Part shown: positions 3,090 through 25,339 of the stretch, one piece after another | How the letters are laid out: each line of letters starts with the position of its first letter | How positions within the stretch are numbered: position 1 is the first letter of the stretch | Virus record (IMG/VR): IMGVR_UViG_3300005805_000415 | Span: 1 to 26,189 of that record | Origin: a virus | Taxonomy: Duplodnaviria; Caudoviricetes | Strand: one strand, 5' to 3' | DNA length: 26,189 nt | Program-made: the position numbers and the translations under genes | The notes under the pieces: model-generated | The model's database searches: none | Told to the model about the DNA's origin: nothing | Seen by the model: only the letters and a program-made list of their open reading frames with translations

Positions 3090-4754
3090 ATGACAACTCC
3101 AGTTAAACATTACATGGGTTTAGATGGCTTCGTCTGGTTCGTTGGCGTTATAGAAGATCGCATGGATCCAGAGAAATTAAATCGAGTTCGTGTGAGATGT
3201 TACGGATTTCATTCGGAAAGTAAAGAAGACATCCCAACTGAAGATCTTCCTTGGGCTAATTGTGTGGTGCCACCAACAAACCCAGCTGCATATTCACCAA
3301 AGGAAGGTGATTGGGTTGTTGGCTTTTTTATGGATGCATATGATGCTCAGCAGCCAGTCATTATGGGAATACTACCAGGAAAACCAAAAGCAAAACCAAA
3401 GAAATCTAATGGATTTGCTGATCCAAATGGTGTTTATCCAAAATATGTAAACGAACCAACTACCACTAGATTGGCTAGAGGCGACATTAAGAAAACTGTA
3501 ATTGAAACTATAAAGAAACAAAGAAAGAAAAATGTAAGATCAACTAGAATAAGTGGTAAAAGATGGGATGAGCCAGAGCCACAATATGGTGCAAAATATC
3601 CATACAACTATGCTCATGAAACTGAGTCAGGGCATGCTTTTGAAATGGATGACACTAAGGGTAAAGAAAGAGTCAATTTGGCGCATAAAATTGGAACAGT
3701 CATAGAATTTAGTTCTAAAGGTGATCGCGTAGATCATATACACAAAGATAAGTATAGTGTTACGATGGGTAGCGATTTTATGTACGTTAAAGGTTCGTGT
3801 AGCATTACTGTAGATGGTGATTGTGATATGAAAATTGGCGGTAAGTGGAATGTGGAAGCTGGTGAGATTAATATATGCGCTACACGTCATGTTAAAATAA
3901 AAGGTGGTTCCAAAACTCAAATTGAATCTGGTGGTGGAATGGACATCAAAGCTGGTGGTTCAATGAAAGTCGGTGGTGGTGGTAAAGCATCATTTGGTGG
4001 ATCTTCTGCAGTTGTATATGGTGCTAAAGTTGATTTAGCTGGTGCTTTTATAAACATTCCTGGTGGTTCGCCAAGTTTTCCAAAAGGAACAGGTTTGTCA
4101 TCAGGTGGATTAGAAGGATTCGTCCCAGGTGCAGCCATCGGAACTTTAGACTACTTCAATTTTAAGGGATTGGGTCTCATCGATGCAATAGGAAATCCAT
4201 TAGGTGACTTTAAAACTCTATTGGATACTGGCGGATTAGTTGCTGGATTGGCTGGAGGATTAAATTTTGGAGCGATTACATCAGCTCTAGCTGCCACTAG
4301 CCAATTTTCTAATTTAACTAAAGAGATAGCAGGCATAACATCAACTGTCAGCTCTGTTTATGGGGATGCTCAAAATTTGATAAATCAAGGTAATTCTTTG
4401 TTAAAACAAGCATTGCCATTGGGACAGTTAGAAAATGGTTTACAAACAATTGAAGGTGGATTAAATAGTTTGTCTGGTGATATACTAAATCTATCACCAA
4501 ATCAAATTACGAATATACAAACAAGTGCTGGATCTTTGGTACAAAGAGCTGCTGAGAGCGGAGTCACTATGGATTTGAGCTCAATAGTTGGAACAGCAAC
4601 AGGAGGAGCAACTTCCCCTGTAGCACCAGGAGGAGTTTTGTCTATCGGCGCAGGTGGAACTCAAGAACCCACCAGCATTATTGCCAAGGAACTTTTCCCA
4701 AGAACTATAACATTTCCAATATCGCCTATATCTTCTAACACTAGTGGTACATAA
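3090..4754 (+). CDS. gp5: Baseplate central spike gp5 (OB-fold plus beta-helix, no lysozyme domain, C-terminal extension)
   Basis: N-terminal FVWFVGVIEDRMDPEKLNRVRVRCYGFH...DLPWA...GDWVVGFFMD...QQPVIMG (gp5 OB domain), then YPYN..HETESGH..E.DDT.G.ER, then 8-residue V.G-type beta-helix repeats. Confidence 0.93.
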   Translation: MTTPVKHYMGLDGFVWFVGVIEDRMDPEKLNRVRVRCYGFHSESKEDIPTEDLPWANCVVPPTNPAAYSPKEGDWVVGFFMDAYDAQQPVIMGILPGKPKAKPKKSNGFADPNGVYPKYVNEPTTTRLARGDIKKTVIETIKKQRKKNVRSTRISGKRWDEPEPQYGAKYPYNYAHETESGHAFEMDDTKGKERVNLAHKIGTVIEFSSKGDRVDHIHKDKYSVTMGSDFMYVKGSCSITVDGDCDMKIGGKWNVEAGEINICATRHVKIKGGSKTQIESGGGMDIKAGGSMKVGGGGKASFGGSSAVVYGAKVDLAGAFINIPGGSPSFPKGTGLSSGGLEGFVPGAAIGTLDYFNFKGLGLIDAIGNPLGDFKTLLDTGGLVAGLAGGLNFGAITSALAATSQFSNLTKEIAGITSTVSSVYGDAQNLINQGNSLLKQALPLGQLENGLQTIEGGLNSLSGDILNLSPNQITNIQTSAGSLVQRAAESGVTMDLSSIVGTATGGATSPVAPGGVLSIGAGGTQEPTSIIAKELFPRTITFPISPISSNTSGT

Positions 4755-4756
4755 TT

Positions 4757-6604
4757 ATGACAGTTTCAGTTGGATTAGTTAAGAAAATCGTATTAGCCTT
4801 CATTGGTGGTGTTAAGTTGATGCCAGTTCCAACAGTACAAATTGGAGGAACAACAGCAGTCACACAATTAGGTGGATTAGCAGGTATGGCTGCAAGTTTT
4901 GCTGGTGGTGCTTTGGGCGGTCTATCAGGAGTATTATCAGGTGGACTTGGTAGTGCGTTGGGTGGAGCATTAGGTGGAGCATTATCTGGTGGACTTTCTG
5001 GGGCATTATCTGGAGCAATATCTTCTGGTGGATTAAGTGGTGCGCTGGGCGGATTTACTGCTGGCTCATCAGCGCTGTCTGCTGTTGGTAAATCTTTAAC
5101 TGGTGCTCTTGGTGGTAATATTGGTGGTTTAGATAATTTAACTTCTAAATTTGATCAGGCTAATGTTGATGTGGATTCTTTCAGCAATATCATTGGAGAG
5201 GTCGGTAGCTTATCAACTACATCACAGTTAAAAGCAGCAGCAGATAGAGTCGGTGTGACTGTAAATTATGGAGAACTGTCAGACATCAGTAGCTTGAATG
5301 CTAAGTTGGAGAGTATTGGGGTAAATCCAGCTGAGTATGGTGATTTAAATGAGATCAGCAATGTTGGGCGACTTTCTGACACTCTTTCAAGTATGGGAGT
5401 TTCTAAAGAATTTGATTTTGGAGATTTGACTGGCGTCACAGCATCAATTCCTGTAACACCAGCAACAATACAACCACAAACCTCAGACGCATTCGCTGCT
5501 TTGGTGCAAAGAGAAGGTGGATTGAACTTTTTGGCTAAGAGCTTAGCAACTGGCGGAGTTTCTCTGGATGAAACTCTATCATCAATTTCTAGAAATCCAG
5601 TTTCTAGTACGATATCGTCAACCAAAACCACTTTGAATACATTGACAGCCTGTAACTATACTGGACTCGATTCTTCTCTATCTAACATATCTTCTGATCC
5701 AGCATTGTCAGCAGCATATCAACAACTTAAATTATCAATTGGCGGACCAGACGGTTTGTCTGGTGCAGTTTCTTATGTCAATGCTTTTGAGGATCACACC
5801 AATAGGTTATCTGGTATAACTCTATCTTCTGATGTAACTGGTATCATCCCAGAGGAAGAAAACACTGAAATTTTTGAGTACAAATACGATCTTCCTATGA
5901 ATACGCCATATGTGGTTGCATCTTTTACACCGCAAAAGATTCGTTCTGCAAAGTTTTTTATACAGGCTACCTCTAACGTAGATCACCAAACTACGGAAGT
6001 GTTCGTGGTTCATGATAATTTACGAGTTTATACCCGCGAGGTAGATGTTATCTACTCACACGACCCTTTTATAACATTTACCAGCCAATTTACGACCAAT
6101 AATGTAACAGTTTTGGCTACCAGTACCAAACCTAATACCGACATTGTGATTTATAGTATTAGATTACCAGTCATAACCAAAGCCAATTCTAATCACACAA
6201 TAGATCAGGGTAGTATCATCGATAATGCACGTGTTCTAAAGGGATTCTTCCCAGAGGATAATGTTGATTATATATCAGCCCAAACAGGTAGTTTGAAAAA
6301 GGCTAATACTGTAGCCGAGTTGAATACGCAAATTAACGACGCAATCATAAAGTTGAATAGCTCAGAATTCAACTCCTTATCCGTTGAAGATAAAAAACAA
6401 TACATAAATTCTATCGCAAGTTCTATAAATACAAGAAGCGTATCTCTACAAACCTCAATAGATTCTGATTTGTCAGCATATAGCGATTTAGAAAAGGTGA
6501 TAAATGCTGCAGATGTCGTTTCTACATTAGTGATAAACTACGCTTCGATAGATACAAAGAGTTTGTTTAGCACAACTACTGCGGTAGGATTGGATCAGAA
6601 ATAA
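4757..6604 (+). CDS. Hypothetical Gly-rich virion protein between gp5 and gp25
   Basis: 615-aa ORF, 2 nt after the gp5 stop, overlapping the gp25 start (TAATG). It has a GGxL-rich N-terminus, internal repeats of about 24 aa, an RSAKFFIQ...EVFVVHD beta-domain resembling T4-like virion structural proteins, and a helical C-terminus. Confidence 0.7.
   Translation: MTVSVGLVKKIVLAFIGGVKLMPVPTVQIGGTTAVTQLGGLAGMAASFAGGALGGLSGVLSGGLGSALGGALGGALSGGLSGALSGAISSGGLSGALGGFTAGSSALSAVGKSLTGALGGNIGGLDNLTSKFDQANVDVDSFSNIIGEVGSLSTTSQLKAAADRVGVTVNYGELSDISSLNAKLESIGVNPAEYGDLNEISNVGRLSDTLSSMGVSKEFDFGDLTGVTASIPVTPATIQPQTSDAFAALVQREGGLNFLAKSLATGGVSLDETLSSISRNPVSSTISSTKTTLNTLTACNYTGLDSSLSNISSDPALSAAYQQLKLSIGGPDGLSGAVSYVNAFEDHTNRLSGITLSSDVTGIIPEEENTEIFEYKYDLPMNTPYVVASFTPQKIRSAKFFIQATSNVDHQTTEVFVVHDNLRVYTREVDVIYSHDPFITFTSQFTTNNVTVLATSTKPNTDIVIYSIRLPVITKANSNHTIDQGSIIDNARVLKGFFPEDNVDYISAQTGSLKKANTVAELNTQINDAIIKLNSSEFNSLSVEDKKQYINSIASSINTRSVSLQTSIDSDLSAYSDLEKVINAADVVSTLVINYASIDTKSLFSTTTAVGLDQK
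6424..6431 (+). promoter_or_regulatory. Possible internal late promoter TATAAATA upstream of gp25
   Basis: Exact consensus about 170 nt before the gp25 start. It is inside a CDS in AT-rich DNA, so it could be chance. Confidence 0.5.
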
Positions 6605-14886: not shown

Positions 14887-17800
14887 ATGGAATTTAACGT
14901 AGATCCGTATTATGATGATTTTGAGCAAAACGCTAAAGAAAATAATTATCTAAAGATTTTATTTAAGCCTGGGGCATCGGTTCAGGCTCGCGAACTAACT
15001 CAAATTCAATCTATTCTACAAAATCAAATCAAGTCTTTGAGCGATCACATTTTCCAAGACGGTTCTCCAGTTATCGGTGGTAATCTAACTCTTGACAACA
15101 AGATAACTTATCTAAAACTAGACGATACCTTCAATAATGAAGACATTGAACTTGATTTGTTTAATGGGAAGGTCATTATTCGCGACTCAGATAGTTTGGT
15201 TCAAGCTAAGGTTTTGGCTACATATTTCCCTGCTGGTGGATCACCAACTTTGATGGTTAAGTATGTTAGTGGTGTTGAATTTGATGATGGCGATGTTTTT
15301 AGAGTGGCAGGAACAATTACCAAGGCTAAGTGTGTTGATAGTCAGGCTTCTGGTAAGGGAACTGTAGTTTCTATCAACGAGGGTATCTTTTATGTTGATG
15401 GATACTTTATTCAGGTTGGTGAACAAACCACTGTTGTAAGCGCATACTCTCAGACTGCGAATGCTAAAATTGGTCTAGAAATTTCTGATGAAATTGTTGA
15501 TAGCGTAGTCGATTCTACATTACTAGATCCAGCGCAACAATCATTTAACTACCAAGCTCCTGGTGCAGATCGTTATCAGTTTAATCTGACTCTAAGCACC
15601 AGACCGTTGGATACCGCGATTGATGAATCCTCTTTCTTCGAACTAATGCGAATTGAAAGTGGTGCGATCACAAAGCAGGTCAAGTATCCAATCTATTCAG
15701 AAATCGAAAAGACTTTGGCTCGCCGTACCTTTGATGAATCTGGCGATTACACCGTAACACCTTTCCGCGCATCAGTTTCGAAGTCTCAAGATGCTAATAA
15801 TTACATCATCAACATTGAACCTGGTAAAGCATACGTCAAGGGATTTGAATTTGAAACTCTTGGCACATTCAAGATGGAAGTACCAAAACCAAGAGGAGCA
15901 TCAGATCAAAAGTCTGTAATTGATCTTGATTTCGACACCTCTTATGGTAACTACATTAAAGTTAGAGATGTGTATGGTTCAGCAAACGGAAACTCATTCC
16001 TAGATGTTGTCAGTCTAGAAAAAGTTGATCTACACTGCGTAGATTCTGCTAGTGTTAATGTTGGTATAACCAGCCCCTTAACTGGTGCAGTTGTCGGCGC
16101 AGCCGCTGATTTCGCAGCATACGCAAACACTAAAATTGGAACTGCGAGAGTACGTGCAATTAAGAGAGATACCCCATCTGGTAATACTGCAGCAGATAGT
16201 CAAGGTGTATATAATTTTTATCTGACTGATGTTGATGTGAGACCAAAAACTATTCGTATGAATGTTGCGAGCGGACTCACATCAACTACCATTAACTTAA
16301 CATCAAATGCATCTAGAAAAGATAACGCATACCAAAACGTCACGATCACAGTATTACCTATTCTATTAAACAATGTTGCGAATGTGTCAACAGCCGATCT
16401 ATATGCGAATGGATATATTTTCGCGAACAGTGCTGTAAGTAGCACTTTCGCTTCACCAAACGTATCTGTTGGTGACATCATCCGCATAGAAGATTATGTT
16501 CGACAGGTAGTTCGCGTGTCGAATGATTATCTAGTCGTCAATAGTGGATTTCAAGCAAACATTACTGGAAGAGATCTACAGGTATTTGTTCAATCCCCAT
16601 ACACATCAAATGTAACTGGTCAAACTAGAAAGATTATTAGTTATGTTGGTGCAACTCAGATCGCAACTCTAGATCGACCATTTGATGAAGGTTCTGTTCC
16701 AACTAGAAACAATGTCGTGCAACTAAACTTTGCATTGAAGGATCTAGAATCCTTAATGGAAGCCAACGTATCAGTTCCAGTTGTAAACGTCCACGCTAAT
16801 GTTTCTGTACAGTCTAAGTTGATTGATGGAGAAACTGTGCTCTTTGAGAATGATGATAAGACTCTAATCTATCGTCTACCAAAGAACTATGTGAAGAGAG
16901 GCAGTTTAGATAACATCGACTATAATCATATCAAGTATGTACAAAAAGCAGTTGACGTCGGTGCTCCTGGTGTGTTCACAGTCTCTCTTGAATCTTATGA
17001 AACGATTCCTTGGTCTGTTACCAACTCAAACATTCAAGATAATCTAATTTGCATACCAAGAAATCACTCAACACCAGCTTCTGGTGAACCAGCGAACGGA
17101 GAAGTCATCACACTAACAACCGCGAATGTTTCTGAAGTTGTCGGTGGTCTTGAAATTGACACTGGACTAACCACTCTAAACGATCTTGATATTTTAGTCA
17201 CCACTAAAGTGAATGACGCCGAAGGTAATGTTCGTAGTAAGACATACAGAAGCAACACAACCTACACATTATCTCCGTTCAACTACCCAAGCGTATCTGA
17301 TGTGAACATTGATCACACAGTTACCATGCCTGCATATGGTGATGCAGTCAAGATTAACGTGGCTCATGGATTGGTATTCGTTACCGAAGCAAATGTAACA
17401 AATATCTTCCCTGGAGATTCAATTAATCTATTTGTCCCAGATGTAGTTCAAGTTCGTAGAATTCTAAGTGGAAACACAACTATTCACGCTAACTCAACTG
17501 TGTACACAGATATAACTGATCACTTCTTAATTGATTATGGGCAGAAAGATGATATTTATGATCATGCTAAGTTAATTTTGAAGCAGGGCTACCCATCACC
17601 AAATGCAAAACTAACTGTGCATTTGGACTTCTTCCAGCATACATACCCAGCTGGAGCAACCTTCTTCTCTGTTGACTCGTATAATTCGACATTAGATGAT
17701 GCTGGAGAGATTCCAGTTTATTATTCATCTAAGAATGGTGTATTTGTATTGAGAGATTGTTTGGACTTCAGACCAACCAAGAGAATTGGAACATTGGATA

Positions 17801-19428
17801 CCATTGACACTGGTCTATTACCAGCTCCAGATGCATCCACAGAACTTTCGTTTGATTATTATCTGCCAAGAATTGATAAGTTGGTTGTGAGCAAGACCAA
17901 AGAATTTAGAATCATTCAAGGTGTTTCTGCGCCAAAACCAGTCGCGCCGCCAGATGATGATGACTCAATGACACTGTATGTCATCTACCTACCTCCATAT
18001 GTTAATAGCATTAATGATATTCGCTTGAAATATGTTGAGAACAAGCGTTACACTATGAGAGACATTGCCAAGATCGACAAACGTGTTGATCGCGTTGAAT
18101 ACTATACAGCACTAAACTCAATTGAAAATAAAGCACTTGATGATACATCGCAATATGAAGATGGAACAGAGAAAGAGAAGTTTGGAATTATTGGCGAAAA
18201 CTTCCGCAACTTTAACATTGCAGATTATCGCAATCCAGACTTTAACTGCAGTATGGTGAGAAATGCATTAACACCATTCTTTAAGAATAAGGTGCTGGGA
18301 ACTAAATTGGTTGGTACAGATTCAGCTAGAGAAAATCAAAGAACTATCACACTCGACTACACCGAAACTCCTGCTGTGAAACAAGAAATCGCCAGCGATA
18401 AGAAAATTACAGTCCAACCATTCTTGTTTGGTACATTTATCGGAGATTTGAGAATTACGCCAGAAGTGGACTACTGGATTTCTACCGAATTAAAACCAGA
18501 AATTATACAAGAACCAGAATATACTCCTGAAGTTGCACCAGAGGCAGTTAAAGAAATCACAAACACCATGGTAATAGTTGAGCGAGTTAAGGATAGACTG
18601 GTGATCGTGACTGTTCCTGAGTGCGCTGTGAACAATTCTCCAGCTCTAATTGAAGTTCCTAGAACTGACCCACCACCAAAACGTCAGGAAGATGACAGAC
18701 CAGTTGGTAGAAATAGACCACCGCCAGTTGTTCCTGATGAGCCATCTTCATCAAGAAAGGCAATATTGCTGGATCCAGATCCTCAAAATGAATCTGTTCC
18801 TGATATTTTGGCACCATTCTTCATCCCAGCTGCAGCTGACTTTGAGCAACATCCATACGAACCACCTCCACCTGAATCAGATATTGAATCTACCATTGGA
18901 ACATCGCGTTTGGTTGCTTCCACAACATCTAAGAAAACATTCAGCGGTGGGTGTGTTGCGCTAGAAAGTTATGTGCCTATGATTGATGACAATATGGTGA
19001 ACAATGGTCCTGTAACACAAGCGTATCAATTAAATCGTACGCATAAGTTAATGTTATGCAATCTAGAAGAACTGAATAACATTGTTGGAACTGTTAAAGA
19101 TGCGTTTATTGATTATCAAGTTTGCCATAGATTGGTAACTGAATCTGGAGCATCGCTAGTTTGCTCAGACACAGCACCAATACCTACGTTAAATAATGGT
19201 ATCAAGAAACCACCAGAATTGGTTGGAGAAATGATACCAGTGTTGCGCAGCGGTGCAATTATTTGGGAAAGAGTAGTTTCTAATGAAAATGTTGGATATA
19301 AATTTGTAAGAGTTATTGATGCCCACGATAATTACTTCTGGGCTGGTGAAACTTCAGACGCATATATTCTACACCATAACATTACAAGTAAGTTCAAAGT
19401 CGCAGATATAAGTTACGAAAAAGATTAA
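14887..19428 (+). CDS. VrlC/DUF4815-like virion structural protein, N-terminal half, with C-terminal Hint domain
   Basis: 1513 aa. FNVDPYYDDF, ILFKPGASVQARELTQIQSILQNQI, APGADR, LARRTFDESGDY.V.PF, PGKAYVKGFE, LRDCLDFRP, YYLPRID and NKRYTMRDI.KI.KR...VEYYT.L are characteristic of the large structural protein that follows gp8 in T4-like marine and freshwater phages. Confidence 0.85.
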   Translation: MEFNVDPYYDDFEQNAKENNYLKILFKPGASVQARELTQIQSILQNQIKSLSDHIFQDGSPVIGGNLTLDNKITYLKLDDTFNNEDIELDLFNGKVIIRDSDSLVQAKVLATYFPAGGSPTLMVKYVSGVEFDDGDVFRVAGTITKAKCVDSQASGKGTVVSINEGIFYVDGYFIQVGEQTTVVSAYSQTANAKIGLEISDEIVDSVVDSTLLDPAQQSFNYQAPGADRYQFNLTLSTRPLDTAIDESSFFELMRIESGAITKQVKYPIYSEIEKTLARRTFDESGDYTVTPFRASVSKSQDANNYIINIEPGKAYVKGFEFETLGTFKMEVPKPRGASDQKSVIDLDFDTSYGNYIKVRDVYGSANGNSFLDVVSLEKVDLHCVDSASVNVGITSPLTGAVVGAAADFAAYANTKIGTARVRAIKRDTPSGNTAADSQGVYNFYLTDVDVRPKTIRMNVASGLTSTTINLTSNASRKDNAYQNVTITVLPILLNNVANVSTADLYANGYIFANSAVSSTFASPNVSVGDIIRIEDYVRQVVRVSNDYLVVNSGFQANITGRDLQVFVQSPYTSNVTGQTRKIISYVGATQIATLDRPFDEGSVPTRNNVVQLNFALKDLESLMEANVSVPVVNVHANVSVQSKLIDGETVLFENDDKTLIYRLPKNYVKRGSLDNIDYNHIKYVQKAVDVGAPGVFTVSLESYETIPWSVTNSNIQDNLICIPRNHSTPASGEPANGEVITLTTANVSEVVGGLEIDTGLTTLNDLDILVTTKVNDAEGNVRSKTYRSNTTYTLSPFNYPSVSDVNIDHTVTMPAYGDAVKINVAHGLVFVTEANVTNIFPGDSINLFVPDVVQVRRILSGNTTIHANSTVYTDITDHFLIDYGQKDDIYDHAKLILKQGYPSPNAKLTVHLDFFQHTYPAGATFFSVDSYNSTLDDAGEIPVYYSSKNGVFVLRDCLDFRPTKRIGTLDTIDTGLLPAPDASTELSFDYYLPRIDKLVVSKTKEFRIIQGVSAPKPVAPPDDDDSMTLYVIYLPPYVNSINDIRLKYVENKRYTMRDIAKIDKRVDRVEYYTALNSIENKALDDTSQYEDGTEKEKFGIIGENFRNFNIADYRNPDFNCSMVRNALTPFFKNKVLGTKLVGTDSARENQRTITLDYTETPAVKQEIASDKKITVQPFLFGTFIGDLRITPEVDYWISTELKPEIIQEPEYTPEVAPEAVKEITNTMVIVERVKDRLVIVTVPECAVNNSPALIEVPRTDPPPKRQEDDRPVGRNRPPPVVPDEPSSSRKAILLDPDPQNESVPDILAPFFIPAAADFEQHPYEPPPPESDIESTIGTSRLVASTTSKKTFSGGCVALESYVPMIDDNMVNNGPVTQAYQLNRTHKLMLCNLEELNNIVGTVKDAFIDYQVCHRLVTESGASLVCSDTAPIPTLNNGIKKPPELVGEMIPVLRSGAIIWERVVSNENVGYKFVRVIDAHDNYFWAGETSDAYILHHNITSKFKVADISYEKD
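18952..19380 (+). other. Hint (intein-like, endonuclease-free) domain, 143 aa, residues 1356-1498 of the 1513-aa ORF
   Basis: Starts at Cys after SGG (CVALESYV, block A-like). Block B-like RLVTESGASLVCSDTAPIPT, then WERVVS.ENVG, block F-like VRVIDAHDNYFWAG, and terminal ILHHN. Only 15 aa follow. Confidence 0.85.
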
Positions 19429-19439
19429 GGGTAATTGAA

Positions 19440-22400
19440 ATGGCAGAAATTTATGTACAGCAAGGAACTTTAATTTCAGAAGTTTCTTTGATAGCATTTA
19501 TTCGTAAACAAGATATTGCATTCGATGCAGATAATCTTCGTCCATATAAGATTGCACGCGCATTCTTTGACGATATTGCAGTTACACAATTTTGCCAAAA
19601 GGGTAACAAGCTAATCTTAAATTCTAAAAAGAATATTGTAGTTAATGCGAACAGTACACTAGCTCATACCTCTAATTCTGTTTATCAAGGAACTTCGTTA
19701 GCTGCTGCAACATTCACAGCTGTAGTCGATAACTACTACTCTGGTAACAATACATTGATTATCAAATCAATGTCTGGTAATTTTGACGACAAGGCTTCAA
19801 TTTATGTGCAAAATGCAAATGGAATTACAGCCTTCAGCGCAAATATTGTTTCATTTAGTAACGAAAATAATTCAGACATATTTTTCAATGGTGAGGGGTT
19901 GGTTTGCCCCAACAATAATGTCTACTTCGAAGTTCTTGGAACATCAGGAGAAAACATTTTATATGTAAACGAAAATTTTACAACATTGGATGTGTCTGAT
20001 AATAGTTCAGCCGAAATTAACAATTTTAAAATTGGTGATCTGGTTTTCCAAACAGTTGATGGTTTGAATAAAGTAAACGCAGCTTCATACTTTGGTCAAG
20101 TTGTATATTCTACAGGAACTGGTGGTTCTATCGCTGTTCAAACTTTGAAGGGCGACTTGAATGTACACTCATCGAACGCAAATTCTAGATTATTTAATGC
20201 AACCAACGCATCAGTAGCTTCGTTGAGAGTAAAAAATACTGTAGCATACGACATTGAACCCAACAATGTGATTACTTCTATAACAACACCATCAAAAAAT
20301 GTATCAATTATATCTCACGAACATAGTTCAGGAATTATAGCAACTGCCAACGCGAATACTGTTCTGGGTGGTGGACAATACGTTTATGTAAATTCAAGTA
20401 ATACATCATTGGCTAATGGTAATTTAATGTATATTACTGCAGGCACAGGAATCGGACAATTCCGTAGAGTTGTTGCTGTAAGCGATAAAACCATAACTCT
20501 AAATTCACCATTCGTTGTGGATCCCACCCACACTTCAAAATATTCTTTCGGCAATCATATTGTTGATGAAAACGGTTCTCTATCAGGCATCTTTAATATG
20601 CCATCAGAACCAAACTTTAAATTTAAAACTGGTGAAAGAGTATTTTCTATTACAGATACTAATGTTTTAGCAGACGCAAACTTTACTATGAAAGGTTCTG
20701 CTAAATTTACTGCGGCTGGATTGATCAATCAAAATCAAACTATTGTGACAACACCGATCAATAATCCAATGCCTGAGTATACTCCTGATAATCCTGTTAC
20801 ACCATTATCTCCAACCGACAGAACATATACATCAACAACACAATCTGAACCAGTAACTGGAGCAACGACTACATCTGTTCCTAGAGTTCAGCTTGCTGAT
20901 GGCTTATCACAAACATTCTTCACACCTAAGCCAACTTCAAATAAAGTGAACAATGGATTGTATGCAACATCAATCGATCTATTCTTCAAGAACAAGCCCA
21001 GCGTGGCGAATGGTTCTTTACAACTACCTGTAACAGTTAAGATTGCTGAAGTGTTAAATGGTTATCCTACAAAGAATTATGTGGCAGCGAAAACTATAAA
21101 AGCAAAAGATGTGAAAATTTCAGATAATCCAAGCACATCAAACGTTGCAACATTGACTAAGTTTGAGTTTGATGATCCAGTTTACTTGCAACCAGACAGT
21201 GAATATGCTATTGTTATTTCTAGCGAATCTCCTGAATATGAATTGTATGTGGCTGAACTTGGTGGTGATGTACTTGGAGCCGATCCTCCTCGTCGTATCT
21301 CTGAACAGCCATATGCAGGATCACTATTCCGCACTCAAAATGCTACAACATGGACTCCATATCAAAACGAAGATTTGATGTTCGTGGTAAATAAGGCTGT
21401 GTTCGCATCTAGTGGCACTGCCACATTTAACTTAGAATCACCACCTAGATTCACGCAAAACGTAGATCGTTTGATGCTCCACAGCAATCAACTTTCTTTC
21501 CCAACTGCCAAAATTGACTATCGTATAAAGGGTGTATTCAAGGCTAATAATAATCAAGAAAATTTTGGCTATTATGTTTCACCGCACAAAGAATTTTCAT
21601 ATGGTAGTTTATTAGATACTTCAACAAAATTATCTTCGACATCGAATACTAATAGTAGATTGGTTCAATTCGGTAATGCTAACAGTGTGGTTATTGTGGT
21701 TGAATTAAGTACATCAGACACTGATGTCACTCCAATATTTAATTCTGAAACTCTAGCCATTGCTACTGTTGAACATGATGTGAACAACGCAGATTTACCA
21801 AACACTGTAATTTCAATAACAAATAGAGGTGTGGGTTATAATGCATACGCCGCAAGTGGTAATGTAATTCGTACTCACGCTGGAACTACTGAAAGCGATA
21901 CACCACTAGCCAACTCTGCGAAAGCATTTAGACAGACATTCCTATCTGATAGCTACAATGTTGCTATGTATGCAGTATCAATCAACGGAGGCGGTGGTAG
22001 TGGAGCGAATGGATTCGCAGTAGCGAACACCACTGGCTCAAATACTGTAGATTACATTGTAATGTTTACAGGTGGTTCTGGTTATGTTGAAAATCCAACA
22101 ATCTCTATTGCCAAGGGAACCGCAACCACAAACGTAAATGCAGAAGCGATTATTTCTGGTGAAACAGGTAAGAGCGGTGGCAACATTCGCGCTAAATATT
22201 TGACCCGCCAAATCGTTCTAGAAGATGGATTTGAGTCTGGTGATCTAAGAGTGTTTATGGATGTAATTCGTCCAAATGGAACAGACGTTCAGGTCTATTA
22301 CAAGGTTCTATCTGCTGAAGACCCAGATCGTTTCAATGATAAGAGATGGGTCCGTATGTTAAAGAGAGTAGATAAGAAATCTAAGAGCCAGCGAGAAATC

Positions 22401-22583
22401 GTTGAACTGGAATTCAAACCAAACTTAGAAGAAAACAAACTATATTACTATGATAATGGTGTCAAGTATCCTATTGGCGAAAAATTTAAATACTTTGCAA
22501 TTAAAGTTTGTATGTTATCAGAGGATCAAGCTGTTATTCCTGTTGTAAGAAATCTTCGTATTATAGCAACTCCAGAGGGTTAA
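19440..22583 (+). CDS. VrlC/DUF4815-like virion structural protein, C-terminal half
   Basis: 1047 aa. Starts with VSLIAFIRKQDIAFDADNLRP...AFFDD, then FKTGERVF.ITD, DGLSQTFF (DPLAQTF-like), TSIDLFFKNKP, TKFEFDDPVYLQ...EYAIV, QPYAGSLFRTQNATTWTPYQNEDLMF, AKYLTR.I.L and FAIKV.M......P....LRIIA. These motifs normally form the second half of the same polypeptide. Confidence 0.82.
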   Translation: MAEIYVQQGTLISEVSLIAFIRKQDIAFDADNLRPYKIARAFFDDIAVTQFCQKGNKLILNSKKNIVVNANSTLAHTSNSVYQGTSLAAATFTAVVDNYYSGNNTLIIKSMSGNFDDKASIYVQNANGITAFSANIVSFSNENNSDIFFNGEGLVCPNNNVYFEVLGTSGENILYVNENFTTLDVSDNSSAEINNFKIGDLVFQTVDGLNKVNAASYFGQVVYSTGTGGSIAVQTLKGDLNVHSSNANSRLFNATNASVASLRVKNTVAYDIEPNNVITSITTPSKNVSIISHEHSSGIIATANANTVLGGGQYVYVNSSNTSLANGNLMYITAGTGIGQFRRVVAVSDKTITLNSPFVVDPTHTSKYSFGNHIVDENGSLSGIFNMPSEPNFKFKTGERVFSITDTNVLADANFTMKGSAKFTAAGLINQNQTIVTTPINNPMPEYTPDNPVTPLSPTDRTYTSTTQSEPVTGATTTSVPRVQLADGLSQTFFTPKPTSNKVNNGLYATSIDLFFKNKPSVANGSLQLPVTVKIAEVLNGYPTKNYVAAKTIKAKDVKISDNPSTSNVATLTKFEFDDPVYLQPDSEYAIVISSESPEYELYVAELGGDVLGADPPRRISEQPYAGSLFRTQNATTWTPYQNEDLMFVVNKAVFASSGTATFNLESPPRFTQNVDRLMLHSNQLSFPTAKIDYRIKGVFKANNNQENFGYYVSPHKEFSYGSLLDTSTKLSSTSNTNSRLVQFGNANSVVIVVELSTSDTDVTPIFNSETLAIATVEHDVNNADLPNTVISITNRGVGYNAYAASGNVIRTHAGTTESDTPLANSAKAFRQTFLSDSYNVAMYAVSINGGGGSGANGFAVANTTGSNTVDYIVMFTGGSGYVENPTISIAKGTATTNVNAEAIISGETGKSGGNIRAKYLTRQIVLEDGFESGDLRVFMDVIRPNGTDVQVYYKVLSAEDPDRFNDKRWVRMLKRVDKKSKSQREIVELEFKPNLEENKLYYYDNGVKYPIGEKFKYFAIKVCMLSEDQAVIPVVRNLRIIATPEG

Positions 22584-22584
22584 T

Positions 22585-22794
22585 ATGAAACTTAGAGTGA
22601 GAGAAAATGATAGATTGGTGAGAGATTCCAATAATCTTGCGTTATTGAACACAGATCGTGACGCTATCAAGAGACACGAGATGAAGATGGAGCAGCTGCG
22701 TAAACAAAAGCAGCGAGACGAAGAAATAAATAGTATCAAGAATGATATTACAGAGTTGAAACAAATGCTTAGAGAGTTAATCAATGGCAAGTAG
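22585..22794 (+). CDS. Small conserved coiled-coil hypothetical protein
   Basis: 69 aa. LVRD..N.A.LNTD motif followed by a heptad-rich helix (EINSIKNDITELKQMLRELI). This kind of gene typically follows VrlC-like genes in T4-like phages. Confidence 0.8.
   Translation: MKLRVRENDRLVRDSNNLALLNTDRDAIKRHEMKMEQLRKQKQRDEEINSIKNDITELKQMLRELINGK
22725..22732 (+). promoter_or_regulatory. Possible late promoter AATAAATA upstream of the fibre gene
   Basis: One mismatch to TATAAATA, about 50 nt before the ATG at 22784. Inside a CDS. Confidence 0.35.
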
Positions 22795-25339
22795 TAACAA
22801 TATTAGCAATGTAGTCACATCAAATACGTTTAATAATTGGCGTATACAGACCAACCTAGCGATTAATGATGTAAATGAGATTGCTCGTGGTGATTTCGTA
22901 AAGCCTAATGGAAATGTAATCATTACTGATGGCTATCTATTGCTAGACAAAGGAAGTGGAACTACTCTGACTGTTGACTCAGATGCTCGTATTTCTGGAT
23001 TGCTCGATGTAAAGAATATTGAGCAAGATAATGGGGCATTCTTCTATTCTGAGAGCGGAGACGTACAATTTCAGAATGGTTCAATTGAATTTCAAATTGC
23101 TGGCAATACTAGAACAAGATTTTTGTTCAATAATAACTTTGCCAGTCTGTCAAATGTAAACGCCAACGGTTACATAGAGACAACTGGAACACATGCCAAT
23201 AATGGCTTGTTCATGAACATTGCGAATGTATTGAAAGTTAATACAACAGGCACTGTGAACATCTCCTCATCAGCAAGTTCACAGGGTAATTTAAATGTAG
23301 CAAATCTGTCAGTGCAAACCTTTGCGCGAATTCACAATGCATATATTCCAACACTAGAGGTTGATACACTAACTACCAACTTCCCTATTCAAGGTGAAGC
23401 GGAAGTTGATGCCGATAGTTATAGACTGCGCGCCTCTCAAACTTCAGATGGCGATGGAGTTTTTGGTGTTTCAAGAGGTGGAAGTCCTGCAGGATTGGCT
23501 GGAAATGCATTCTTAAAATTTGAATCTAGTGATTCTATTTGGCAAGCAACTGCAAATAATCTAGTCCCAGGAACTCAGGCTTCTATTGGATTCACTGTTT
23601 CAAACGGATATTATACTCTGTTAACAACACAGAACTTAGTTGACTCAATTACATCTACCAGTTTGACGAATGTTCCTACTGCTAACTCAGTGAAGTGGGC
23701 GTATGAGACTGCGCAGTCTGGTGGTTCTGCTGCGAACGTGGCTGCTAATACAGTTCGCGTTTCATTGAATGGATCTAGCACACTAGATAAACAACAGTTG
23801 AACTTTGTTAACTCTGCAACTATCATTGTAAATGTTGAGGGTGCGCAAGGATCCTTGGCTGGTAATGCAAATATCTCATTCACAGTAGCGCAAGCAGTTG
23901 GTGCTCAGGGTGCTCCTGGTGTGCAAGGCGCACAAGGAGTGCAGGGTGCTCAAGGTGTGCAAGGTTCACAAGGATTTCAAGGTGTACAAGGAACACAAGG
24001 TCCTCAAGGTCTACAAGGTTTAACAGGTGTTCAAGGATCCCAAGGCATTCAAGGTGCGCAAGGTCGTCAAGGCGCACAAGGTTTACAAGGTGTGCAAGGT
24101 CCACAGGGATTCCAAGGCAGCAGAGCTGGTGTAAATTATCAGTTCTCTAGTAACCAAGTTGACGAAGATCCTGGTGTAAATAAGTTTAGATTTAATAATG
24201 GAACCATCGCTTCTGTAAATAGAATTTTCATAAGTACAGTTGGTAATGGTGGGACAACTCAAACTAACTTTATAGAGTCATGGGATGATAACTCTGCGCC
24301 CGTTAGTGGTGTGCGAGGATATTTGTACATACAGGCTAGAGATCCTAGCGAAAGCACTATTGCAATATTCAAAATTTCTGGTGCTGTAATTGCTGGCGAC
24401 ACCAGTGGCTATAGAAAAGTGCCTGTAACATATGTTTCGGGAACCATGCCTACAAATGGTCTTGAGATGATTTTTGAATTCTCAGCAACAGGTGATGTTG
24501 GTGCACAAGGTTTAACTGGAGCACAGGGAGCAGCTGGTGCCACTGGTAATCAAGGTGTACAAGGAGCTCAAGGTCGTCAAGGCGAGCAGGGTCCGCAAGG
24601 TGTGCAAGGAACCAATGGTGTGAATGGAACTAATGGTTCCACAGGCGCACAAGGTATTCAAGGTGCACAAGGTCGCCAAGGTGCACAAGGTTTACAAGGC
24701 ATACAAGGTCCACAAGGTTTCCAAGGAAATGCTGGTACTAACGGAACTAATGGAACTAATGGTTCTACAGGTGCACAAGGTGTTCAAGGTGCACAAGGTA
24801 TAATAGGTGTTCAAGGTGCTCGAGGTCTACAGGGTGCTGTTGGTGCTGCAGGTACACAAGGTCCACAAGGATTCCAAGGAATTGCTGGTCCATCAGGAAC
24901 GATTAATGCAACTGATGTGACAGGTGGTGGAGTTCGATACTTAGTCGGTGTTGCAGCTAGAGGGTCTAACCAAACAGCTTCCGCATCTAGCCCATATTTT
25001 GATGGTGGTACTGTGTATGCTACAGATTTCTCAGCATCTTCTGATGCTAGACTGAAGGATGTAGTTGGTAAGATTGAAAATGCTCTAGAAAAAACTACAC
25101 AAATTGATGGTGTGAAGTATTATTGGAACAATTTAGCAAAACAAATCGGATTTGGTGAAAGTGAAGAATTACAAGTTGGATTGTTAGCGCAAAATATCTT
25201 GGAAGTTCTACCAGAGGCAGTAGACACCACACAAGGTCATTTGCGTGTCAAGTACGATCGTATTGTTCCTCTATTGGTTGAAGCCATCAAAGAACTCAAT
25301 GATAAGGTGAAAGCACTAGAAGCAAGATTGGGTGAGTAA
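22784..25339 (+). CDS. Tail fibre/whisker protein with collagen-like repeats and C-terminal intramolecular chaperone (peptidase S74)
   Basis: 851 aa. N-terminal [10 protein letters not shown] virion-attachment motif, two Gly-X-Y blocks, and C-terminal SDARLK...ALEK..QIDGV.Y.W...GLLAQ....VLPEAV...[16 protein letters not shown]. Confidence 0.88.
23900..24124 (+). repeat. Collagen-like block 1: 25 uninterrupted Gly-X-Y triplets (mostly G-x-Q)
   Basis: GAQ GAP GVQ ... GPQ GFQ GSR, counted by hand. The DNA has a 9-nt caaggNNNN periodicity. Confidence 0.95.
24491..24904 (+). repeat. Collagen-like block 2: 46 uninterrupted Gly-X-Y triplets
   Basis: GDV GAQ GLT ... GIA GPS GTI, counted by hand. It includes GTN/GVN sub-runs. 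Confidence 0.95.
25040..25336 (+). other. Peptidase S74 intramolecular chaperone autoprocessing domain
   Basis: SDARLK (Ser/Lys dyad motif) starts at 25040, followed by GLLAQ, PEAV and a terminal coiled coil. Confidence 0.9.

Follow-up and report, generated by a model that had tools for sequence, protein, structure and literature searches.

Residues 1356–1498 of a phage baseplate protein are predicted to form an endonuclease-free Hint fold, which caps the N-terminal half of a split VrlC. The protein is encoded in a stretch of 26,189 nucleotides from a virus of the Caudoviricetes (IMG/VR record IMGVR_UViG_3300005805_000415), hereafter the window. Our preferred reading, held tentatively and at slightly under an even chance, is that of a self-excising cap resembling type A bacterial intein-like (BIL) domains, which would transfer Gly1355 to a lysine of its own tail.

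The window and its split VrlC gene

The window encodes a T4-like baseplate module in which gp48-, gp53-, hub-, gp5-, gp25-, gp6-, gp7- and gp8-like genes were recognised with Pfam and PHROGs. On the 3' side of the gp8-like gene, the same profiles identify two ORFs that both match phrog_358, followed by a collagen/S74 fibre. Since the two adjacent ORFs share phrog_358, the 1513-aa protein is the N-half of a split VrlC/DUF4815 protein; it matches the DUF4815 profile and lies after the gp6/gp7/gp8-like wedge genes (Pfam, PHROGs). The features discussed below are the following:

14887-19428, + strand: Hint-bearing ORF of 1513 aa, VrlC/DUF4815 N-half
14887..18498, + strand: VrlC/DUF4815 N-half body, residues 1-1204, baseplate protein and putative N-extein (PF16075, E 3.5e-59)
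18499..18936, + strand: stalk rich in Pro and Glu, spanning about residues 1205-1350; the Hint-free relative L066 has it too (sequence, L066 alignment)
18937..18951, + strand: TFSGG, short form of a poly-Gly linker; G1355 is the -1 residue
18952..19380, + strand: Hint domain, C1356-N1498, 143 aa, no endonuclease (sequence, model, structure matches)
19162..19179, + strand: block B CSDTAP (C1426-P1431), with Ser1427 at B:7 and Ala1430 replacing the His of B:10
19372..19380, + strand: block G His1496-His1497-Asn1498 (in the family H 134, H 138 and N 136 of 139 clusters)
19381..19425, + strand: 15-residue tail ITSKFKVADISYEKD, putative C-extein, with Lys at +4, +6 and +14; predicted disordered
19440..22583, + strand: VrlC C-half gene, 1047 aa, separated by 11 nt from the N-half stop (best phrog_358 stretch 1321-1586)

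The N-half ORF covers phrog_358 positions 6-1117 of 2056. Both halves match ORF65 of PDB entry 9euf, a DUF4815 protein of a Staphylococcus phage baseplate, the N-half body with E 5e-29 up to ORF65 residue 609 and the C-half over residues 804-970. ORF65 is one chain of 1152 aa, whereas the window has two genes plus the stalk and the Hint domain. ORF65 is probably the tripod protein of phage 812 (PMC13433997), tripods being trimeric, putative receptor-binding parts of the baseplate; gp119 is a candidate label for it.

Four lake-water runs of one study, two of them possibly the source of the window, contain the stretch. In their contigs the domain and its stop codon show no other letters, indels or joints, and no joint skips the Hint domain in the four runs, contigs being prone to drop rare variants.

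Three further regions of the module deserve mention. A 615-aa Gly/Ser-rich ORF after gp5 (4757-6604) has no Pfam or PHROG match, and the C-terminal third of gp5 (4000-4754) is an unannotated Gly/Ala-rich extension. The module has a further autoprocessing cap in the self-cleaving Peptidase_S74 chaperone with which the collagen-repeat fibre (22784-25339) ends.

Predicted structure of the domain

The landmarks that the earlier note had read from the letters are all in place. The TFSGG|C junction puts the Cys at residue 1356 (nt 18952), and Cys1356 to Asn1498 is exactly 143 aa, without room for an endonuclease; the C-terminus is ILHHN|ITSKFKVADISYEKD-stop, the +1 residue is Ile and block B, CSDTAP, has no His. 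An AlphaFold2 model built on a 47-row homologue alignment has a mean pLDDT of 89.0, and the tail falls to 44-56, i.e. is unordered. Every listed Foldseek PDB row for this model is an intein, a BIL or a Hedgehog domain, in agreement with the Hint fold that had been expected; the best, 4o1r, has E 4e-8 and TM 0.75/0.86. VIA-align scores range from Z 19.8 to 14.0 for 50 entries, in a register that places the model Cys on intein residue 1 and the model Asn on the intein terminal residue. The top matches in a viral structure library are 448 and 285 aa long, as are cultured-phage proteins found by tblastn. The single-sequence ESM Atlas search gave leads at 0.87-0.91 only, with low recognition.

Sequence profiles miss the domain: Pfam returned 0 families at E<=1, PHROGs 0 and NCBIfam 0 at E<=5. 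PT-HINT, Hint_2, Intein_splicing and every other Hint family of Pfam matched 0 of 8 family members at E<=10. Single-sequence searches with the domain gave 0 matches in the PDB (phmmer) and 0 new loci in viral contigs, and the window holds no second Hint. The placement of Ala at B:10 comes from an HMM alignment pairing LVCSTTAP with IRCTPDHP of NrdJ-1 (weak, E 0.85), and a His-retaining sister family, which reads CSTTHK at the same columns, supports it. This sister family does carry PT-HINT matches.

Relation to known Hint systems

The predicted β-fold, with its termini at the splice junctions, belongs to the HINT superfamily. The domain shares the position-1 Cys and the terminal His-Asn of class 1 inteins (C1356, H1497-N1498), and has Ile instead of their +1 Cys/Ser/Thr and SDTA instead of the block B TxxH. 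Class 3 inteins are described in PMC7765530 by a Trp-Cys-Thr triad with its Cys at F:4 and by the absence of an N-terminal nucleophile; here Cys1 is present, F:4 is Val and G:5 is His. The type A BIL definition in PMC4031507 (Cys1, His-Asn, no +1 nucleophile, no endonuclease) corresponds to what is found. Judged on motifs, the domain would thus be a type A BIL and would work like one in our proposal, while standing outside the described BIL profiles. It is no BUBL, with a Pro stalk upstream, a 15-aa tail downstream and no ubiquitin-like Pfam match, and no Hedgehog Hog domain, the 15-residue tail being followed by a stop with no sterol-recognition region.

The Clostridium thermocellum BIL (2lwy) shares the Hint fold (Foldseek E 1e-6, Z 16.4), Cys1, His-Asn and the lack of an endonuclease, and type A BILs likewise have no +1 nucleophile and sit in variable regions of surface proteins. 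The window domain departs from them by Ala for His B:10, by HHN, by a conserved downstream Lys and by its phage baseplate host. BIL2 of Tetrahymena thermophila BUBL1 (6y75/6tmm) also has the Hint fold (6y75, Z 17.2), and its ATP-free splicing, which makes an isopeptide with a Lys side chain (PMC8616854), is the chemistry proposed for the window Hint. BIL2 has ubiquitin-like flanks and keeps the catalytic H69, whereas the window Hint lacks both and its acceptor would be the 15-residue tail. The Hedgehog autoprocessing domain (1at0) shares the fold (Z 18.2) and passes its N-terminal partner to a non-extein nucleophile, as proposed here; the window Hint differs in keeping His-Asn. Vertebrate Sonic hedgehog has a Gly-Gly|Cys junction.

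Range and conservation of the family

Searched with a profile of the domain, 7999 candidates yielded 341 proteins, of which 120 were listed; a larger search gave 1057 representatives at 50% identity, 681 of them at E<=1e-10. Motifs were counted in the best 150 of the 1057 representatives, whose 160 domain hits, after dropping 8 without His-Asn, yielded 139 clusters (<70% identity) with a located Cys1 and 145 clusters with a tail. Position B:10 is Ala in 134 of the 139, Thr in 5 and His in none; B:7 is Ser/Thr in all 139. In block G, HHN is usual, with His at G:5 in 134 clusters and Asn in 136, and three clusters without a tail end in HHD. A +1 Cys/Ser/Thr occurs in 7 of 145 clusters. The view of the earlier note that the domain is BIL-like rather than a canonical intein is right.

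The domain is found in VrlC N-halves, gp5-like spikes, lambda-J-like tips, phrog_15511 proteins of giant phages, pilin-, PKD- and RHS-bearing proteins and a 600-880-aa protein encoded after ribonucleotide reductase genes. Nine cultured phage records contain it (tblastn), among them Stenotrophomonas phage DLP6 (AMQ65897.1), where it sits at the end of a VrlC N-half whose split lies further along. Its dN/dS is 0.06-0.12 in the four informative pairs of six, two being near-identical and the window pair lying near saturation. The domain, an endonuclease-free Hint without a +1 nucleophile, is therefore under purifying selection. The domain is maintained; a self-removing passenger would be conserved too, so a benefit to the phage does not follow.

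No description of this family turned up in the openly accessible literature searched; Amitai 2003, Dassa 2004, Tori 2012 and Chiarini 2021 may already mention the lysine. In the XacN1 paper (PMC5852040), ORF231, a carrier of the domain, is absent from the text and supplement as available, and the protein list sits in a figure.

Several arrangements of Hint domains were observed beside the main family. Tandems of two subfamilies (L036:6111-8477, P0044, P0045, P0047, P0048) have an 8-10-residue Lys/poly-Gly spacer, the first Hint keeping the block-B His and the second lacking it. Tandem His-less Hints with a KK-bearing pentapeptide between them occur in P0255, P0256 and P0350 (also P0257, P0259, P0315 and P0335); two hosts of this type bear pilin N-methylation motifs, and the last copy has neither tail nor Asn. 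Arg/Pro/Gly-rich proteins (P0121-P0148 and others) contain two to three His-retaining Hints with a Lys after each. In Xanthomonas phage PhiXhv-12, a free-standing degenerate Hint ORF of 139 aa (L148:6423-6842), with no Cys1 and no His-Asn, lies directly after the Hint-capped gene. Adjacent phrog_15511 paralogues of giant phages are both Hint-capped (L053:8465-9826, L057, L059, L060), the second with a Cys-Cys junction and a Cys-rich tail, and a third paralogue has no Hint match. A Pro stalk and the Hint are combined in the 600-880-aa protein whose gene follows those of ribonucleotide reductase (L021:5901-8483 and some 35 loci like it), and this protein has no PHROG match.

A conserved lysine in the tail

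The domain's own tail holds a conserved acceptor candidate, a lysine, which the earlier note had missed. K1512 (nt 19420-19422) is the conserved penultimate Lys of ITSKFKVADISYEKD; with three Lys in that tail, the window sequence alone does not single it out. Among the 145 tailed clusters, 144 have a Lys in a tail that is otherwise variable, at +1 to +3 in 105, at the penultimate position in 44 and at either in 140. Lys is rare at +4 to +10, with 2-7 per column of 104-140 rows. The 112 tails of at least 8 residues divide into 73 with an early Lys only, 30 with a penultimate Lys only, 6 with both and 3 with neither. Each of the 148 distinct close domains has a Lys in its tail of 5-31 residues, penultimate in 135. 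Chance would give a Lys in about 25-34 of 49 clustered tails. Among 156 other ORFs from these loci Lys is penultimate in 24, and among 22 split VrlC N-halves without a Hint in 2.

The penultimate position is mostly that of the 38-row clade of the window, in which 36 rows have it and the early Lys is mostly lost, with few separate cases elsewhere. As the shift belongs largely to one clade, the counts are not independent and the Fisher p of 5e-18 is inflated. A His at F:4 accompanies the early Lys in 73 of 91 clusters versus 2 of 41 with the penultimate Lys, and the window has Val1476. The window adds a subclade in which the move of the Lys to the penultimate position goes together with the loss of the F:4 His, as well as the caution that comes from the M86 mutant discussed below. 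Binding of the tail carboxylate by an Arg at F:3 was considered and set aside: Arg stands there in 26 of 35 penultimate-only clusters and in 0 of 5 outside the main clade, a property of one clade only.

A search for the sister family with the His-retaining Hint that four proteins carry in tandem gave 428 matches, 120 of them listed, which after removal of partial domains without His-Asn form 43 clusters. In these clusters the Lys is at +1 in 33 and at +2 in 10, i.e. in 43 of 43, and among the 120 proteins listed are 20 VrlC N-halves with a His-retaining Hint in the same stalk. Because the sister family has the Lys as well as the His, the Lys is not merely a substitute for a lost His. It therefore predates the loss of the His, and it occupies the place of the +1 nucleophile of inteins.

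The missing histidine

PMC4031507 describes His B:10 as more conserved than any other intein residue and names two exceptions, a pseudogene and Tko CDC21-1, which uses Lys58. Together with the H73A mutant of the Ssp DnaB M86 intein, Tko CDC21-1 indicates that function without this residue is possible, as the window Hint would need; in the VIA comparison 6fre (G-1F/H73A) ranks first with Z 19.8, a score that His-bearing inteins share. The two His-less inteins depend on Lys58 or on a large side chain at -1 and retain a +1 nucleophile, whereas in our family Gly or another small residue dominates at -1. The N-S shift on which the earlier note builds is not to be assumed, because His-to-Ala plus Gly(-1) leaves the M86 intein completely inactive (PMC6333167), and the thioester step therefore needs an activator. 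Compensation by Gly(-1) was rejected, the same source saying the opposite. The extra His of HHN is weakened as a universal stand-in by the 5 of 139 clusters that have neither it nor the block-B His (including DLP6, LucasX, PhiXhv-12 and XacN1).

The N-terminal step might accordingly be dead or dormant, leaving a folded appendage on the stalk that at most clips its tail at Asn. The inactivated model intein, the absence of the F:4 and F:13 helpers in the subclade of the window (F:13 is Asn, in a register taken from a weak HMM alignment) and the degenerate second copies, such as the 8 of 160 hits without His-Asn, point this way. We find it improbable: Cys1 heads all 139 located full-length clusters (location used Cys, and Cys-less rows are mostly fragments or second copies), B:7 is invariably Ser/Thr and -1 residues are mostly small.

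Ligation, cleavage or an outside acceptor

In the preferred reading, Cys1356, aided by Ser1427, would attack the Gly1355 carbonyl to give a thioester, with His1496, Arg1475 or the tail Lys as candidate stand-ins for the block-B His. A tail amine, most likely the side chain of Lys1512, would take the acyl group as Cys/Ser/Thr+1 does in inteins, and cyclisation at His1497-Asn1498 would free the 143-aa domain. The product would be VrlC(1-1355) capped by a short branched peptide, with a hydrolysed side product carrying a free Gly end. The predicted fold and its Cys1/Asn register match inteins, and type A BILs splice by aminolysis (PMC4031507). A C-terminal cap could leave by N-terminal cleavage alone, yet His-Asn and the Lys tail are kept, which suggests ligation. 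Against it stands the apparent lack of three usual helpers, His B:10, polar F:4 and F:13; moreover, as the tail is unordered in the AlphaFold model, the prediction does not dock K1512.

The strongest competitor is cleavage without ligation. The thioester would be hydrolysed and the Asn would cyclise to give VrlC(1-1355) with a free Gly end, and the Lys would stabilise an oxyanion or a leaving group rather than accept the chain. Such an outcome, which we consider unlikely while taking it seriously, suits the accounts that type A BILs yield mostly cleavage products (PMC4031507, PMC7664689) and that Lys58 of Tko CDC21-1 replaces His as a catalyst rather than a nucleophile (PMC4031507), and the Hint-free L066 ends 13 residues past the stalk, near the cleavage product. 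However, the Lys is kept in the His-retaining sister family (all 43 clusters listed), and its tolerance at +1, +2, +3 or the tail end suits a long-armed nucleophile better than a fixed catalytic residue. Moreover, more than 40 residues lie downstream in 29 of the 43 sister clusters and in 33 of the 148 clusters of the family itself, and cleavage would shed them.

The earlier note had the Gly thioester passed to an outside amine, of a virion protein, a small molecule or the host surface, making a covalent linker on the stalk. The domain is carried by distal or surface proteins (VrlC, gp5-like spikes, lambda-J-like tips, pilin/PKD/RHS proteins), the Pro stalk is long, BIL2 conjugates to other proteins (PMC8616854) and a crippled active site could delay the reaction until triggered. 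Ligation to another baseplate protein or a host target is nonetheless unsupported and, in our estimate, has a small chance of being right: the conserved cis Lys would compete, no ligand-binding domain follows the Hint, and the domain is dispensable in L066. The ubiquitin-like Gly-Gly signature dissolves on comparison: GG reads as the end of a poly-Gly linker, and no more than 73 of the 139 family clusters have it, as do 10 of the 40 sister clusters. The junction is GGG|C in 132 of 148 distinct close domains, and VrlC-borne members with NEG|C and IVG|C exist. Of the motifs whose conservation the earlier note proposed to check, HHN and the Ala at B:10 are kept, and GG|C is not family-wide.

The Hint domain and the VrlC split

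Of 247 loci retrieved with the VrlC core, the best 80 contained no Hint (Hint-fetched loci not among them). The closest of these, L066, at 72% identity, keeps the split and the stalk, with no Hint remnant; with a relative so close lacking the domain, the "domesticated" module of the earlier note is not established. In the VrlC tree the Hint occurs in 19 of 20 rows of the clade of the window, a proportion enriched by the way of finding, L066 being the exception, and P0101 and DLP6 carry it on separate branches amid Hint-free kin.

In three separate VrlC lineages, whose splits lie at two different points, the domain sits at the break; this could suggest that it rejoins the halves, G1355 being ligated to the N-terminus of the protein encoded next. 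Such rejoining is very improbable. The closest Hint-free relative keeps the split gene, and therefore the domain does not serve to rejoin the halves; the Hint clade lies amid split lineages without Hint, a Hint is absent from 22 distinct split loci, the C-halves share no conserved nucleophile at their N-termini, and the same domain caps unsplit, unrelated proteins. The VrlC split does not depend on the Hint, and the free stalk end was colonised repeatedly.

Further lineages have their VrlC split at several different places (L092, L094, L095, L104, L110, L114, L118, L120). Some N-parts there end in hydrophobic/basic or Gly-rich tails, and three-piece forms exist.

Significance

Several hundred sequence clusters lack His B:10 and have a lysine where inteins have Cys/Ser/Thr. 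They might form a Hint class that splices without either the block-B His or a Cys/Ser/Thr acceptor, through an isopeptide with a downstream lysine, which in this subclade would be read from the free C-terminus (phi-x-K-x-COOH). Such a class could make virion tips that are branched or cross-linked, or could arm a flexible stalk with a covalent hook that awaits a trigger; we regard this wider proposal as possible, though doubtful. Cultured carriers, such as Stenotrophomonas phage DLP6 and Xanthomonas phages, make the domain testable now. If it only cleaves, annotation pipelines still miss a common autoprocessing site. If ligation to the lysine is true, it would be an ATP-free, single-domain isopeptide ligase of use to protein engineers, and phage virions and bacterial surface proteins would have a maturation step not described before.
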